Below are positions 2,279 to 63,450 of a stretch of DNA of 64,000 nucleotides, piece by piece. Each line of letters begins with the position of its first letter. The first letter of the stretch is position 1. A program made the position numbers and the translations under genes. The notes under the pieces were generated by a model. That model saw only the letters and a program-made list of their open reading frames with translations. It was not told where the DNA came from and made no database searches. Source of the DNA: Alphaproteobacteria bacterium. Lineage in GTDB: Bacteria; Pseudomonadota; Alphaproteobacteria; UBA6615. The stretch covers positions 15,193 through 79,192 of the forward strand of contig CBDHDN010000029.1 of NCBI GenBank assembly GCA_965261585.1, in the 5' to 3' direction.

Positions 2279-3289
2279 TCACTCGACCGCCCGCTTCAGG
2301 CTGCGCGGCCCGTGCGGATGATCGGCGTGGGGATAGGGATGGTGGCCGTGGCCGCGCGCGTGGGAGTGCCCATGGTCGCGCGCGGGGTCGGGGTCCTCGG
2401 GTCCAAGCCCGAGGATGCCCTCGAAATGATGGTGATGGCTTTCCTGCCGCAGCCCGACCTCGGCCTCAAAGCCGAGCACGTGTTCGCGGTACTTGCAGAG
2501 CTGGCAGTTCATCGTGTTGCGGCCGTCGACGATCTCGTCGATGCGCTCGACGAACGCGTCGAGCACCAACGGGTGATCGTTCAGATAGGGCGCCTTGACG
2601 AACTCGATCGCCGGGCGGGCGGCGGCGGCGGCCTCGACCGCGTCGTAGATGCGGCGCACCAGGACGCCGGTGAACAGGAAATAGGGAAACACGACGATGC
2701 GCCGGTAGCCGAGCCGCGCCGCGTGTTCCAGTGCCGGGCCGACGAGCGGGAAGGTGACGCCGGAATAGGCCGTCTCGCCCCAACCGAAACCATGGCCCTC
2801 GCACAGCATGCGCGAGACCTTGGCGACGTTCGCGTTGGCGTCGGGATCCGACGTGCCGCGGCCGACGACCATAAGCAGCGTGTCGTGGCGGGCAACCGCG
2901 CCGGCCGTGTCCGCGGCGCGCACGGCGGCGTCTATGCGGTCGCCGGCGGCTCGCACCATGCGCATGTCGAGGCCAAGGTCGCGGCCGTAGCGCAGCGTCA
3001 TCTCCGGATGCCGGGCGGCATAGGTGTTGAGCACGGACGGGATGTCGTTCTTGACGTGGCCGGCGGCGAACAGCATGCCCGGCACGGCCAGCACGTTGCG
3101 GATGCCGCGCGCGCGCAGGTCGTCCAGCCCGTCGCGAATGATCGGCCGGGCGAACTCCAGGAAGCCGTGGGCGAGCGGCCGTGGGGCGACGCGTTCGCGC
3201 AACGCCGCGGCGACATGGCCGAACTCGGCGACCGCGGCAGCGTCACGGCTGCCGTGGCCGCAGACCATGATGCCCCTGCCTTCGTCCAT
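2279..3289 (-). CDS. cbiX: long-form CbiX-type (sirohydrochlorin) cobaltochelatase with MxCxxC motif and His-rich tail
   Basis: ORF 2279..3364, start taken at ATG 3289. Two CbiX-like halves (MVCGHGSRD..., LLMVVGRGTSDPDAN...). MNCQLCKY motif, then HHHHFEG...DHGHSHARGHGHHPYPHADHPHGP. Confidence 0.75.
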   Translation of the reverse strand: MDEGRGIMVCGHGSRDAAAVAEFGHVAAALRERVAPRPLAHGFLEFARPIIRDGLDDLRARGIRNVLAVPGMLFAAGHVKNDIPSVLNTYAARHPEMTLRYGRDLGLDMRMVRAAGDRIDAAVRAADTAGAVARHDTLLMVVGRGTSDPDANANVAKVSRMLCEGHGFGWGETAYSGVTFPLVGPALEHAARLGYRRIVVFPYFLFTGVLVRRIYDAVEAAAAARPAIEFVKAPYLNDHPLVLDAFVERIDEIVDGRNTMNCQLCKYREHVLGFEAEVGLRQESHHHHFEGILGLGPEDPDPARDHGHSHARGHGHHPYPHADHPHGPRSLKRAVE

Positions 3290-3377
3290 CCCCGCTTGCC
3301 CCCGCGCCTGCGACGATGCAATAGAGCACGGCGGTGCGCCGAGGCCAAGCGCACGCGGGTGCACTTAGGAATGAACC

Positions 3378-3922
3378 GTGCCTATCCGGTTAACGCACAC
3401 ACCCACAACATGTAGTGTTGCGGTGATAGAAAATTCGGGGCCATCAGATCTTGAAGGAATTGTAGAGTTCGAGTGCCGAATTATTCACAAATGACCCTGG
3501 GAACTGGTTTTCAAGGTCGCTCAATACGTCATATGGAGCACGTCGGTTGAGAACCACACACCTGCGTGTCGCTTCGTCTTCGCTGCGGATCAGAGTGCGC
3601 AGAAGAGTAACAGGAGCAGACGGGTTTTTCGCAACGATCCGCGCCAATATGGCGCTTTCTTCGGCTAGTGCCATCAATCGCTGAGGCGATGTCTTTTCAT
3701 CAGCAGGTTCCCGTCTGGCCGTGGGTTTCTTCTTTTTTTCCTTGGTCTTCATCAATCTGTCCCCCGATGTTCAGTGCGTAAAGTGAATCAAACCCACGTT
3801 CGGACTTCAGCACAATCAGAAATTTGCCAGATCGAATTCCCCTTGCGGCCGCGACTACCCTTCCCTGCCGTGCGACAGGATACACTACATGTTGTGGGTG
3901 TGTGCGTTAACCGGATAGGCAC
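3378..3922. mobile_element. transposase-less TIR-bounded cassette (MIC/MITE-like) carrying one passenger ORF
   Basis: GTGCCTATCCGGTTAACGCACACACCCACAACATGTAGTG at 3378-3417 has its exact reverse complement at 3883-3922 (40/40). The direct repeat GGAATGAACC lies at 3368-3377 and 3923-3932. The interior is visibly AT-richer than the flanks. Confidence 0.65.
3444..3752 (-). CDS. hypothetical small protein with leucine-rich-repeat-variant (LRV)-like NPxxP...L motifs; passenger of the cassette
   Basis: ORF 3444..3755 (TTG), with ATG at 3752 preceded by GGGGGA. The Lys-rich N-terminus (MKTKEKKKKP) is followed by IVAKNPSAPVTLLRTLIRSEDEATRRCVVLNRRAPYDVLSDL. Codon usage is atypical for the window. Confidence 0.5.
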   Translation of the reverse strand: MKTKEKKKKPTARREPADEKTSPQRLMALAEESAILARIVAKNPSAPVTLLRTLIRSEDEATRRCVVLNRRAPYDVLSDLENQFPGSFVNNSALELYNSFKI

Positions 3923-3930
3923 GGAATGAA

Positions 3931-4028
3931 CCACAGAGGCACAGAGGCATAGAAGTGCAGGTCAAGTTGCGTCACCCCTGATCGAATTGATTCCTTCTGC
4001 TTCTCTGAGTGTCTCTGTGCCTCTGTGG
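3931..4028. repeat. palindromic REP-like element, family A (CCACAGAGGCACAGAG arms)
   Basis: CCACAGAGGCACAGAGGCATAGAAG at 3931 is matched by the inverted CTTCTGCTTCTCTGAGTGTCTCTGTGCCTCTGTGG ending at 4028. The same arm sequence recurs at 63152-63170 and, inverted, at 63372-63390. Confidence 0.55.
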
Positions 4029-4059
4029 TGATCCTTTAACCCTCGACCTGCGAGGGCTG

Positions 4060-5064
4060 ATGCTGCTTCCCGACCTCTATGCGAACGGCCTGGTGACGCT
4101 GCCGGCGATCCTGTTGCTGGCGCTGATCATCGACGCCGTCGTCGGCGACATGGGGCGGGTGTTCCGCATCGTGCCGCATCCGGTAGCGCTCGTCGGCGGC
4201 ACCGCGGCCTGGCTCGAGCGGCGGCTCAACCGGCCGCGGCGCAGCCGGCGCGCCCGGGCCATCCGGGGCCTCGTGGTCGCGGTCGCGCTGCCGGCGTTGG
4301 CCGCGGCGGTGGGCTGGGGCATCGCCGCCGGCGCGGCGCGGGTGCCCTACGGGCAGGCGATCGAGCTCGCCGTCGTCGCCGTGCTGGTCGCCCAGCGCAG
4401 CCTGTTCGATCATGTGCGCCGCGTCGGCCGGGCGCTGACACGCGACGGCTTGGGCGGCGGGCGCGCGGCCGTGCGCCACATCGTCGGCCGCGACCCCGAT
4501 GGCCTCGACGAACATGGCGTCGCCCGGGCGGCGATCGAGAGCCTGGCCGAGAACTTCGCCGACAGTGTCGTCGCGCCGGCCTTCTGGTACCTGCTGTTCG
4601 GGCTGCCTGGGCTGCTGGCCTACAAGTGTGTCAATACGCTCGACAGCATGCTGGGCCACCGCTCGCCGCGCTATGCGGCGTTCGGCGCCGCGTCGGCGCG
4701 GCTGGACGATGTGATGAACCTGGTGCCGGCGCGCATCGCCGCCGCCATGATCGCCGGCGCGGCGCTGTTCGCGCCGCAGGGCCGGCCGGGCCGCGCCGTC
4801 ATAGTGATGGTGCGCGACGCGCGCAAGCATCCCTCGCCCAACGCCGGCTGGCCCGAGGCGGCGATGGCCGGCGCGCTGGGCGTCGCCCTGTTGGGCCCGC
4901 GCCGCTATGACGGCGAGGTCGCCGACGGGCCCTGGCTGGGCGCCGAGTTCACGGCACGGGTGACGCCGGTGGACATCGGGCGCGCGCTCTACGTCTTCAC
5001 CGTCGCCTGCCTCCTCGACGGCGCCCTGATCGTCGCACTGGCGGTGTTAGTGCGGTTCTCTTGA
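4060..5064 (+). CDS. cobD: adenosylcobinamide-phosphate synthase (CobD/CbiB)
   Basis: ORF 4009..5064 with ATG at 4060. Polytopic membrane protein with GRDPDGLDEHGVARAAIESLAENFADSVVAPAFWY and HPSPNAGWPEAAMAGALG motifs typical of CbiB. Confidence 0.9.
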   Translation: MLLPDLYANGLVTLPAILLLALIIDAVVGDMGRVFRIVPHPVALVGGTAAWLERRLNRPRRSRRARAIRGLVVAVALPALAAAVGWGIAAGAARVPYGQAIELAVVAVLVAQRSLFDHVRRVGRALTRDGLGGGRAAVRHIVGRDPDGLDEHGVARAAIESLAENFADSVVAPAFWYLLFGLPGLLAYKCVNTLDSMLGHRSPRYAAFGAASARLDDVMNLVPARIAAAMIAGAALFAPQGRPGRAVIVMVRDARKHPSPNAGWPEAAMAGALGVALLGPRRYDGEVADGPWLGAEFTARVTPVDIGRALYVFTVACLLDGALIVALAVLVRFS

Positions 5065-13699: not shown

Positions 13700-13912
13700 C
13701 CGAAGAGGTCTCCTGGCTTCGGGTCGACGGTTGCGACCGGCCTTCCCGGCGGCATGCCGCCAGTGGCGCCCCGAACGCGGGGCCGTGGTCACACCCTCGC
13801 CGTCACAGTTGCGGGGGCAGCGCCGGTTTTGGCCGGTCGCTTTGTGTCGCGACAGCGGCCGCACCGGACTTCCCTGTCTCGACGCGGGCGCGACGTTAGC
13901 ACGGCAGCCCGC
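13700..13912 (-). promoter_or_regulatory. cobalamin (B12) riboswitch leader of the cobU-cobW-cobN-cobO...cobQ array
   Basis: The minus strand reads ...GAGACAGGGAAGTCCGGTGCGG...GCGCTGCCCCCGCAACTGTGACGG...GCGCCACTGGCGGCATGCCGCCGGGAAGGCCGG...GAAGCCAGGAGACCTCTTCG. All conserved cobalamin-riboswitch blocks are present, including the B12 box (AGCCAGGAGACC), and in the right order. It lies about 45 nt upstream of the cobU start. Confidence 0.85.
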
Positions 13913-32623: not shown

Positions 32624-34536
32624 GTGCGCCAGGCGAACTGGCAGAAGGTAGGGGGTGCAAGTCCCCCGGAACGAAGGAGTAACCGAACCACGTTTCTCCG
32701 CGAGCCGTGCGTTGGCTCCCGTGAGGGGGCAGGCGAAGCGTCGGTAGCGGCATGGATGGGCAGGGCTATTGAGCACCGTAAAAGCGATGGTCCGGGGTGC
32801 CGAGGCTTTCAGATCGGTCGAAGGCAATATTGCAGGCGTCGTTTTGGTGAGATGTCGGCGAGCCCCGCGGTGTCAGAGAACCCATGCACGTTCGCACGCC
32901 TTCTGTTGGGACCCTGGGAGGTCTTCAAACTGCCCCGGTTGTCGTAAAGGGGCCGCGTAGGGAATGGAGAAAACCGAAGCCTCTGATGAACGGTTTGAAG
33001 AAGTCGGATGAGGCCGTACGACCTGTGAGGGCGGCGAACAAGGGAGCGCGAGCTTCTGCGGAGTCGCCGGAGGAAAGGGCCTCAACCAAGGGGAATCCGG
33101 ATTGCCAAAGCACGCGCCGAACCCAGTGTCGGGTAAGCGTGCCACAGGCGGCGGCCCGGATACGGAAAGCTGCAGAGAGAAACCCGAAGGAACGTCTCAC
33201 TGCGCTCTTCCACCACATTACGCCGGACGCGCTCGGTGCGGCCTACTTCGCATTGAAGAAGGACGCAGCAGCCGGTGTCGACGGCGTTACGTGGGACATG
33301 TACGGCGAGGGTCTGGATGAGCGCCTGCTCGACCTGCACCGGCGCCTGCACAGAGGGGGAGCGTACCGGGCGCCACCGGTTCGGCGGGTAGAGGTACCCA
33401 AGCCGGACGGGGGGACACGACCGCTCGGGATCGCGGCGCTGGAGGACAAGGTCGTCCAGAAGGCGGTTGTGGATGTGATCCTGACACCGATCTACGAGGT
33501 GGTGTTTCTTGGCTTCAGCTACGGGTTCCGACCGGGGCGGGGGGCGCACGATGCGCTCGATGCCCTGGCCTTCGGGATAGAACGGCGCAAGGTCAGCTGG
33601 ATAGTCGATGCAGACCTCCGGGCGTACTTCGACACGATCCCGCGGGATTGGTTGATCACGTTCCTAGAGCACCGCATCGGAGACAGGCGGGTCATCCGTC
33701 TGATCCGGAAATGGCTGAGCGCCGGCGTCATAGAGAGTGGGTCATGGGCAGATACGGGTATGGGCACGCCGCAGGGGGCAATAGTCTCCCCCGTCTTGGC
33801 GAACGTGTTCCTGCATTACGTGCTCGACGTGTGGTTCCACAAGAAATGGCGCCCGAACGTCCCGGATGGCGAAGCGATCATCGTCCGTTACGCTGACGAT
33901 ATCGTTGTCGGGTTCCAACACAAGCGGGATGCGGAGCGGTACCTCCGCGACGTTCGGGAGAGGCTGGCCCGGTTCGGTCTCAGCCTCCACCAGGACAAGA
34001 CCCGCCTCGTGGAGTTTGGCCGGTTCGCGGATTTGAACCGGCGCCAGCGCGGGGTGGGCAAGCCGGAGACTTTCGACTTTCTGGGCCTCACGCACTATTG
34101 CACGACGACCCTGAGAGGACGCTTTCGGCTTGGTCGCAAACCGGTTGCCAAACGGGTCAACAGGACCCTGGCGCGCATCGACGAGGTGCTTCGCAAGCGC
34201 TGGCACCACGACATCTGGGAAGTTGGTAGGTGGCTGGGGAGAGTCTGCAATGGCTGGCTCAACTACTTTGCCGTCCCAGGGTCAGGCCGGTTCATCCGTG
34301 CGTTCCTCCGCAGGCTGCAACGCCGGTGGATGCGGGCGCTACGCCGCCGGTCCCAGCGAGCCCGATTTAGTTGGAAGCGACTGGAGCGCATGACCGAAAT
34401 CCTGTGGCCACGCGCCTCCATCCGCCACCCATGGCCGGACCAGCGGTTCGCCGTCAAGCACCCGAGGTAGGAGCCGGATGGTTCAACGACCACGTCCGGA
34501 TCTGCGCGGGGGGTGCGCAGCAATGCGCATTCCTAC
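32624..34536 (+). mobile_element. group II intron (about 1.9 kb) with intron-encoded protein
   Basis: 5' GTGCGCC at 32624. RT/maturase ORF in domain IV. Domain V-like hairpin GAGCCGGATGGTTCAACGACCACGTCCGGATC at 34471-34502, directly after the ORF stop. Domain VI-like hairpin GGTGCGCAGCAATGCGCATTCCTAC with a bulged A 8 nt from the proposed 3' end (34536). The 3' boundary is inferred, not proven. Confidence 0.75.
32986..34470 (+). CDS. ltrA: group II intron reverse transcriptase/maturase
   Basis: ORF 32884..34470, likely ATG at 32986 (MNGLKKSDEAVRP...). RT blocks are PKPDGGTRPLGIAALEDKVVQ, ADLRAYFDTIPRD, QGAIVSPVLANVFL and YADDIVVGF. A maturase X domain follows (WLNYFAV). Confidence 0.9.
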   Translation: MNGLKKSDEAVRPVRAANKGARASAESPEERASTKGNPDCQSTRRTQCRVSVPQAAARIRKAAERNPKERLTALFHHITPDALGAAYFALKKDAAAGVDGVTWDMYGEGLDERLLDLHRRLHRGGAYRAPPVRRVEVPKPDGGTRPLGIAALEDKVVQKAVVDVILTPIYEVVFLGFSYGFRPGRGAHDALDALAFGIERRKVSWIVDADLRAYFDTIPRDWLITFLEHRIGDRRVIRLIRKWLSAGVIESGSWADTGMGTPQGAIVSPVLANVFLHYVLDVWFHKKWRPNVPDGEAIIVRYADDIVVGFQHKRDAERYLRDVRERLARFGLSLHQDKTRLVEFGRFADLNRRQRGVGKPETFDFLGLTHYCTTTLRGRFRLGRKPVAKRVNRTLARIDEVLRKRWHHDIWEVGRWLGRVCNGWLNYFAVPGSGRFIRAFLRRLQRRWMRALRRRSQRARFSWKRLERMTEILWPRASIRHPWPDQRFAVKHPR

Positions 34537-63099: not shown

Positions 63100-63450
63100 G
63101 GTCTATGCCCCCTCCCCCAAGGGGAGACCCTTGCGCAAACGCGGCTGGATTGAACCACAGAGGCACAGAGACACAGAGAAGGCACTGAGTTGGAGAAAGT
63201 GCCCCCTCACCCTCCATCGCTGCGCGATGGGTCCTCCCTCTCCCGCCAGGGGAGAGGGAGATGCTAGCGCTCGCAGAAAGCCCCTCTCCCCCTGCGGGAG
63301 AGGGGTTGGGGTGAGGGGAACCATCGCCACGAGATGGCAACTCGTGGGCTGAACGACGTCAGAAACGCTTACTCTGTGCCTCTGTGGTTCGACCTTCTGC
63401 CCTGTTTTGCAAAGGTCTCCAAGGGGGGCAGGGCCGGAGAGGGGGGTGAA
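63100..63450. repeat. composite block of nested palindromic REP-like units (family A arms enclosing family B-like hairpins)
   Basis: GAACCACAGAGGCACAGAG at 63152-63170 has its inverted copy at 63372-63390. Between them lie CCCTCACCC...CCTCCCTCTCCCGCCAGGGGAGAGGGAG...CCCCTCTCCCCCTGCGGGAGAGGGGTTGGGGTGAGGGG. Extra CTCCCCCAAGGGGAG-type hairpins lie at about 63108 and 63416. Confidence 0.6.

Follow-up and report, generated by a model that had tools for sequence, protein, structure and literature searches.

What is the palindrome-bounded segment that lies between the divergent cobalamin genes cbiX and cobD of an alphaproteobacterium of the UBA6615 lineage, and how did it come to be there? We examined a stretch of 64,000 nucleotides (hereafter the window; contig CBDHDN010000029.1, positions 15,193–79,192, assembly GCA_965261585.1), in which the segment spans 547 bp (3377–3923), is bounded by terminal inverted repeats (TIRs) and carries a gene on the minus strand. 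An earlier reading of the same DNA, referred to below as the original prediction, had proposed a cassette that lacks a transposase and is mobilized in trans. Very probably, the segment arose from an insertion sequence (IS) of the IS1595 family (putatively ISSod11-like) and represents a mobile insertion cassette (MIC), in which the ends were kept and a gene for a leucine-rich-repeat-variant (LRV_2) protein stands in place of the transposase gene. The non-autonomous, TIR-bounded MIC of the original prediction is supported by further copies, by ISs that possess the same ends, and by an empty site in relatives, the segment being missing at the orthologous position of contigs L203 and L205.

Boundaries of the cassette and its target duplication

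The repeat search returned two arms of 43 nt with 100% complementarity (3376–3418 and 3882–3924) and 463 nt between them. The exact inverted repeats that had been predicted are therefore present, and their extent was corrected to a TIR of 42 nt (CGTGCCTATCCGGTTAACGC...), with a cbiX-side arm on the plus strand (3377–3418) and a cobD-side arm on the minus strand (3882–3923) that is its perfect complement. The 40-mer arm is found at only two positions of the window and in 0 of 100 dinucleotide-preserving shuffles. The 10-mer GGAATGAACC occurs only at 3368–3377 and 3923–3932 (expected count 0.02), and none of the 100 shuffles contained two copies of it; the repeats of the cassette are far beyond chance. 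G+C content drops from 0.70–0.74 in the flanks to 0.50–0.55 inside the cassette, in agreement with the AT-richer interior described before.

The 10-bp target duplication of the original prediction had to be given up. In the ~1.1-kb plasmid elements and in three related cassettes (L004, L005 and L006) C invariably stands just outside GTGCC... and G just outside ...GGCAC, and the C/G termini of these comparison elements are flanked by 8-bp direct repeats, e.g. CGTTATTG, GAATCAAC, GAAGAAAG and CAAGAAAG. The terminal bases of the window cassette are likewise C (3377) and G (3923). The C...G termini and the 8-bp duplication of the other copies rule out a parse into 40-bp repeats and a 10-bp duplication, and the target-site duplication (TSD) is instead the 8-mer GAATGAAC, present on the left at 3369–3376 and on the right at 3924–3931, a length that is fixed by 100+ related elements and is that of the IS1595 family. 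The 10-mer arises because the cassette's own terminal C and G coincide with bases of the flanks, and a 10-bp reading is also possible at 3 of the 51 distinct sites with a perfect 8-bp duplication.

Related elements were collected using a degenerate end pattern over one genome per species and an open reading frame (ORF) profile over metagenome contigs. This yielded 112 end-paired elements with cassette-type ends from plasmids, genomes and metagenomes, mostly alphaproteobacterial. All but three have C...G termini, and those three deviate in the right-hand base. A perfect 8-bp duplication flanks 55 of the 112, and 34 of 54 if isolate or long-read loci alone are counted; 1.5e-5 per site would be expected by chance. 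Fifty unique duplications revealed a palindromic target preference, G-W-W-N-N-W-W-C, with G at position 1 in 39/50, C at position 8 in 36/50, and A/T at positions 2, 3, 6 and 7 in 39–44/50. The GAATGAAC of the window cassette agrees with this consensus, and the identical 8-mer was used as target by an unrelated copy (L146) in an AT-rich context.

These features leave next to no room for another transposon family, that is, a TIME of the Tn3 family or a MIC of the IS4/IS231 type. Repeats of ~40 bp do resemble Tn3-family ends, and a 10–12-bp duplication would suit IS231. However, Tn3-family TIMEs have ~38-bp GGGG... ends and a 5-bp duplication, whereas the duplication is 8 bp across the present family, the ends start with CGTGCC and not GGGG, and the transposases found between such ends are exclusively of the IS1595 type. 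The TIME class was rejected for the window cassette on its CGTGCC ends and 8-bp duplication.

Insertion sequences with the same ends

BLASTN against plasmids gave matches confined to the cassette ends, on elements of ~1.1 kb from sphingomonad plasmids, and one end-matched element, on Tardibacter pHSL3, is annotated as the carrier of an IS1595-family transposase. The cassette ends are 88–93% identical over 30–42 nt to the ends of transposase-bearing ISs of 1.09–1.15 kb, which encode a protein of 327–342 aa. In two elements with the same ends (L010 and L083) the transposase contains the domains Zn_ribbon_IS1595 (PF12760, E 7e-15) and DDE_Tnp_IS1595 (PF12762, E 3e-36). The search for an IS with matching ends, which the original prediction had proposed, was thus successful, and the domain content points to IS1595 as the cognate transposase family. 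The ends, termini, duplication length and target motif of the cassette are those of IS1595-family ISs. The transposase had been called “elsewhere or unknown”; “unknown” no longer applies now that the family has been identified, while none has been located in this organism. The ends alone were matched, the interior of the cassette resembling no plasmid DNA, and no DNA similarity to these ISs extends beyond the ends.

The window cassette shares with ISs of the IS1595 family, putatively of its ISSod11-like group, the ends (CGTGCCTATCC...), the 8-bp duplication and an A/T-rich palindromic target. It differs in that its autonomous relatives encode the Zn-ribbon and DDE_Tnp_IS1595 transposase, whereas it has no transposase and an unrelated interior. 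The ISSod11 group is reportedly defined (ISfinder; Siguier, Gagnevin & Chandler 2009) by ends of the form nnnGcnTATC and by the signature DDHK+ER4R7. The end CGTGCCTATC fits this consensus, and the transposases of the end-sharing ISs contain ...IHHGVSAKH...NEFTFRFNRR, in which the signature appears to be present (E, R+4 and R+7 of EFTFRFNR); the placement in the ISSod11 group is tentative. Elements of the ISSod11 subgroup have been reported in sphingomonads (PMC5737581). For the IS1595 family, the literature gives duplications of 8 bp and one transposase gene, whose product has a zinc finger at the N-terminus as well as a DDE domain (PMC8101967); 8-bp repeats that are A/T-rich are also on record (PMC12561309).

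A trace of the transposase gene can be seen in the terminal repeat itself: the C-terminal residues of the IS transposase (...HVVGVCVNRIGT*) are encoded there (3774–3929, plus strand), as in the right ends of related ISs. In the window cassette this reading frame survives as the end of a spurious 51-aa ORF.

The passenger gene

The sole long ORF inside the cassette (3444–3752, minus strand) encodes 102 aa from an ATG, or 103 aa from a TTG at 3755. The 102-aa form is on record as a protein, while the exact 103-aa form is not. A Shine–Dalgarno-like GGGGGA (3760–3765, minus strand) lies 7 nt upstream of the ATG within a block conserved at 0.85 across copies; the single 102-codon ORF with its own Shine–Dalgarno was thus correctly predicted. 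The product gives a weak match to Pfam LRV_2 (PF25591, E 1.2e-5) and is a stand-alone LRV_2 protein, predicted to be helical, with a basic N-terminal tail. Pfam detected no transposase domain in the cassette, as had been claimed, and two other ORFs had no Pfam match.

The ORF has 69 homologues with 63–94% identity, almost all of 102 aa; those of cassettes L004, L005 and L006 are 94% identical to it. Under a strict filter, 40 of 53 unique cassettes possess an intact full-length ORF, and among the remaining 13 several merely have other starts, with ~6–7 truly disrupted. Nei–Gojobori dN/dS has a median of 0.27 over 768 pairs (5–95%: 0.17–0.48), and variation by codon position is 0.131/0.078/0.186, with third positions varying most. 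Over 40 aligned cassettes, column conservation falls from 0.90–0.91 in the repeats and 0.87 in the coding sequence to 0.77 for the leader of 130 nt and 0.67 for the tail. On the dN/dS values, the variation by codon position and the conservation of the coding sequence, the LRV gene is under purifying selection across the family, and it is real cargo that selection has preserved.

A profile search of 1.8 billion representatives returned 4079 matches, mostly proteins of 500–2200 aa in which the best match is N-terminal and many further repeats follow. Ten of the long matches were examined and all are LRV/LRV_2/HEAT-type repeat proteins, one with an N-terminal WGR domain. In BLASTP, the ORF is 40–46% identical to the first ~90 residues of large LRV-repeat proteins, including the basic tail and the ...QFPE..NNP.L.. 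ending. By this similarity, the cassette protein corresponds to an N-terminal LRV_2 module that stands alone. The AlphaFold2 model is all-helical (pLDDT 79) with a disordered basic N-terminus, and Foldseek against the PDB produced only non-significant alpha-solenoid matches (best E = 1.1). Most likely, the protein would be an interaction module for other proteins that aids the cassette or the host. Full-text searches of the literature returned no paper that connects LRV proteins to ISs.

[quoted passage not shown] Like a MITE, the window cassette is non-autonomous, TIR-bounded, duplication-flanked and multi-copy, and true MITEs with these ends do exist: members of 297 bp and 132 bp (L013 and L026) still encode the transposase C-terminus, the pattern expected of deletion derivatives. 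The window copy is moreover substituted at near-invariant residues, has a dN/dS of 0.6–1.9 against its nearest relatives, and its ORF was assigned no function by the searches. However, MITEs are non-coding deletion derivatives, whereas the window cassette has a selected ORF and an interior without DNA similarity to the IS beyond the ends, and on these two features it was not assigned to the MITE class. The constant length of the intact ORF in 40 of the 53 unique copies, the low median dN/dS, the excess of third-position changes, the better conservation of the coding sequence than of the non-coding interior, and the Pfam match together with the similarity to the N-termini of thousands of LRV proteins speak against a dead ORF as well.

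The insertion site and its empty counterpart

On one side of the cassette, cbiX (sirohydrochlorin cobaltochelatase; 2279–3289, minus strand; Pfam CbiX 1e-48) starts 87 bp away, and on the other cobD/cbiB (4060–5064, plus strand; Pfam CobD_Cbib 3e-93) starts 136 bp away; for both, the exact protein is on record. The cassette gene reads towards cbiX. Two other assemblies (L199 and L200) carry the exact CobD and CbiX proteins, and there the same 770-bp spacer holds the same cassette with 0–1 base differences. The CbiX proteins that come nearest after these are 92% and 91% identical and are encoded on contigs L203 and L205, where cobD and cbiX are separated by a spacer of 223 bp. The alignment of these spacers contains the left flank, a single ...AAGGTTTGACCACAGAGG... 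and a whole repetitive extragenic palindromic (REP)-like palindrome, with the cassette absent. Judged from this alignment, the 223-bp spacer is the empty site that the original prediction had suggested looking for in relatives, the REP-like palindrome predates the cassette, and the insertion took place at its outer end. The event postdates the split from the relatives whose CbiX is 91–92% identical.

Given this empty site, the suggestion that there was no insertion at all, and that the segment is an ancestral palindromic part of the cbiX–cobD spacer or an assembly artefact, is already refuted and keeps a probability close to nil. The cassette is a single copy in the window and adjoins another palindromic repeat, which such a view could cite, but the locus is identically occupied in two independent assemblies, L199 and L200, the segment is precisely absent from L203 and L205, and near-identical copies lie at unrelated sites with duplications of their own.

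The REP-like palindrome next to the cassette (3927–4031, arms CCACAGAGGCACAGAGGCA) overlaps the cassette target with its outer end, as the original prediction had noted, and also occurs at the relatives' empty site. A second REP-like copy is found at 63150–63390, preceded by GGATTGAACC. Both copies have arms CCACAGAGGCACAGAG, span ~100 bp and ~240 bp, and are preceded by GGA(A/T)TGAACC; the one at 3927–4031 is conserved at the orthologous site in relatives.

A different IS of ~1.4 kb occupies the same cbiX–cobD spacer in L204 (1377–3000), whose CbiX is 92% identical. It encodes a 468-aa transposase of the HTH_23/28/29/32 type and lies ~20 bp from the site of the window cassette, beside the REP palindrome. 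Two different elements in the same spacer of related strains imply that this spacer tolerates insertions, and suggest that it may be an insertion hotspot.

The original prediction had further stated that the insertion splits a shared control region. Its position between cbiX and cobD stands, but no promoter-like site or riboswitch was found there: a promoter scan of 3200–4150 returned no sigma-70-like site, and the search for regulatory RNAs and riboswitches in the spacer gave none, only sub-threshold noise of a miRNA model on the REP palindrome. The scan of 3200–4150 also gave three weak terminator-like hairpins within the ORF, on its non-coding strand, which were judged not meaningful. The B12-responsive control element of the region is a cobalamin riboswitch aptamer outside the spacer (13706–13875, minus strand; RF00174, 63.4 bits). 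Elsewhere in the window, 32658–32882 (plus strand) matches group II intron domains D1–D4 (RF02005, 161.7 bits, E 9e-47).

Spread of the family and sister cassettes

The search for further copies of the TIR, also proposed in the original prediction, returned many, at different sites and with different duplications. A cassette from another sample (L206) is identical to the window copy at 546 of 547 positions and sits at an unrelated site with the TSD CAATCTAT. Cassettes L004 and L005, at two different sites, have the same 15 differences from the window copy (532/547 identical) and, judged from these, would be identical to each other. With near-identical copies at different sites, the movement of the cassette must be recent. 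The family comprises 69 protein clusters and >50 distinct DNA copies. Most homologues of the ORF are found on contigs of 0.5–0.9 kb, and the DNA copies mostly on contigs of 0.5–2 kb, because the repeat breaks assemblies.

In the metagenome-assembled genome (MAG) CAZPWJ01 (uncultured Rhodospirillaceae SRP200020_co5_209; L007–L124), ~50 contigs end exactly in the terminal repeat, from which a very high copy number and a fragmentation of the assembly follow. Multiple copies were also noted in the MAGs CAVZWU01 and CAVYIZ01, with ~15 copies of the 1093-bp IS in a second MAG and 7 or more of the 297-bp MITE in a third.

A 755-bp form (L149) consists of the LRV cassette and 125 bp of the right end of the IS, which makes it a plausible intermediate in the replacement of the transposase gene. 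On a single 1.9-kb metagenome contig (L161, 90–1772), an intact IS (339-aa transposase) is separated by 32 bp from an LRV cassette; either helper and cassette reside together here or the assembly is chimeric.

It is very unlikely that the cassette is autonomous and moved by the LRV protein, or by a host recombinase that recognizes the long perfect repeats. In favour of such autonomy, the window lacks a cognate transposase, the cassette has spread very widely, and the two arms match better in cassettes (mean of 4.2 mismatches in 41 nt) than in the ISs (mean of 8.6). Nevertheless, the protein, a 102-aa all-helical repeat, has neither a fold nor a motif of a nuclease or recombinase, the cassette has its ends, termini, duplication length and target motif in common with transposase-bearing ISs, and the L161 contig places an intact IS next to a cassette.

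Other genes are found between the same ends. In a Parvibaculum MAG (JBAQNC010000311.1; L046, 951–2128), an element of 1178 bp with IS1595-type ends and a perfect 8-bp duplication, GAAGCATC, possesses TnpB (Pfam OrfB_IS605 and Cas12f1-like_TNB) as its sole gene. TnpB fills nearly the whole interior, leaving no room for ends of the IS200/605 type, and is unusual as cargo of a DDE-type TIR cassette; an Rfam search of this cassette gave no match to an omega-RNA-like family. A cassette of 2639 bp from a Terracidiphilus MAG, an acidobacterial bin (L125, 1541–4179; TSD CATCCTTC), contains an ORF of 534 aa that resembles LAGLIDADG_2 endonucleases, and a 583-bp cassette with the same ends (L089, 3478–4060; TSD GGGTGAAC) encodes a PTH2 peptidyl-tRNA hydrolase of 113 aa.

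Comparison with known mobile elements

The window cassette displays the features of a MIC: IS-matched TIRs, no transposase, a passenger coding sequence and a TSD of the length of the parent IS. The closest described counterparts are the MIC231 elements, mobile insertion cassettes from IS231 (IS4 family) in the Bacillus cereus group (De Palmenaer et al. 2004, cited in PMC3129680 and PMC3281130). MIC231 elements likewise combine IS-type TIRs and a target duplication with a passenger gene unrelated to transposition in the absence of a transposase, are likewise presumed to be mobilized in trans by the parent IS, and are likewise modular; the ends described here carry LRV, PTH2, TnpB or LAGLIDADG genes. 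In contrast to MIC231, the parent here is IS1595 and not IS4, the duplication is 8 bp, the distribution is mainly alphaproteobacterial, the cargo is LRV_2, and mobilization in trans is a prediction. Transporter ISs (tIS) are IS1595-family and other ISs with passenger genes beside the transposase, placed at the “frontier between IS and transposons” (PMC3129680). Passenger genes inside IS ends are thus a shared trait known for the IS1595 family, but a tIS keeps its transposase, a gene that is completely gone from the window cassette. In the literature searched, which did not cover ISfinder, no IS1595-family LRV cassette without a transposase came to light. Apparently the cassette family is undescribed, yet widespread, and falls within the known MIC class.

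Proposed mechanism and points against it

For the IS1595-derived MIC we propose that the LRV gene would have replaced most of the transposase gene within the IS ends. The Zn-ribbon and DDE_Tnp_IS1595 transposase of a full-length IS elsewhere in the cell would bind the 42-bp ends and move the cassette in trans into a target resembling G-W-W-N-N-W-W-C. Staggered cuts of 8 bp, followed by gap repair, would create the GAATGAAC duplication. The cassette landed where the REP-like palindrome meets the spacer between the divergent operons of cbiX and cobD. The LRV protein may act as a protein–protein interaction module from which the cassette or its host gains; the passenger gene is assumed to play no part in transposition. 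Bearing indirectly on mobilization in trans are the dispersed near-identical copies, the empty site, and the IS beside a cassette on L161.

Several observations weigh against this reading or parts of it. For a partner in this organism, tblastn detected no IS1595-type transposase in the window, and there is no further copy of the cassette ends in it, just as the original prediction had found no IS with matching ends there. Matching duplications are missing from roughly half of the related elements, which we tentatively attribute to chimeric short-read contigs and recombination between copies. The ISSod11-group label, based on the consensus of ends and motif, is provisional. As regards the gene, PADLOC, NCBIfam and PHROGs returned nothing significant for the ORF, and no match in these libraries supports a function. 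In the window copy itself the nearly invariant residues are altered (A17P, P93S) and dN/dS is raised as described above, suggesting that the gene of this copy may be decaying or drifting.

Implications

With this assignment, a palindrome that had stood unexplained within a B12 gene cluster becomes a dated and mechanistically assigned insertion whose transposase family is identified. Since two elements landed within ~20 bp of each other in related strains, the locus also poses a question on the expression of cbiX-cobH... and cobD. The small cassette gene is usually unannotated or called hypothetical; recognizing the cassette would improve the annotation of alphaproteobacterial genomes and MAGs and account for a class of contig breaks.

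A bolder idea, which we put forward tentatively and consider rather unlikely, is that the LRV gene is an element-encoded decoy or adaptor and that the ends are a modular “cassette platform” also carrying TnpB, a LAGLIDADG endonuclease and PTH2. If true, the protein could act, e.g., against a host system built on large LRV-repeat proteins, or as a transposition helper, and such an element-encoded factor would explain why, among the non-autonomous derivatives of its IS group, the LRV cassette is the most frequent. A TnpB gene within a TIR element of the DDE type would then parallel, in bacteria, the association of eukaryotic Fanzor with DDE transposons. The interest of the family lies in its wide spread, its selected cargo and its modular sister cassettes, and the cassette is a tractable case in which to ask why a gene under selection is retained by an element that is not autonomous.

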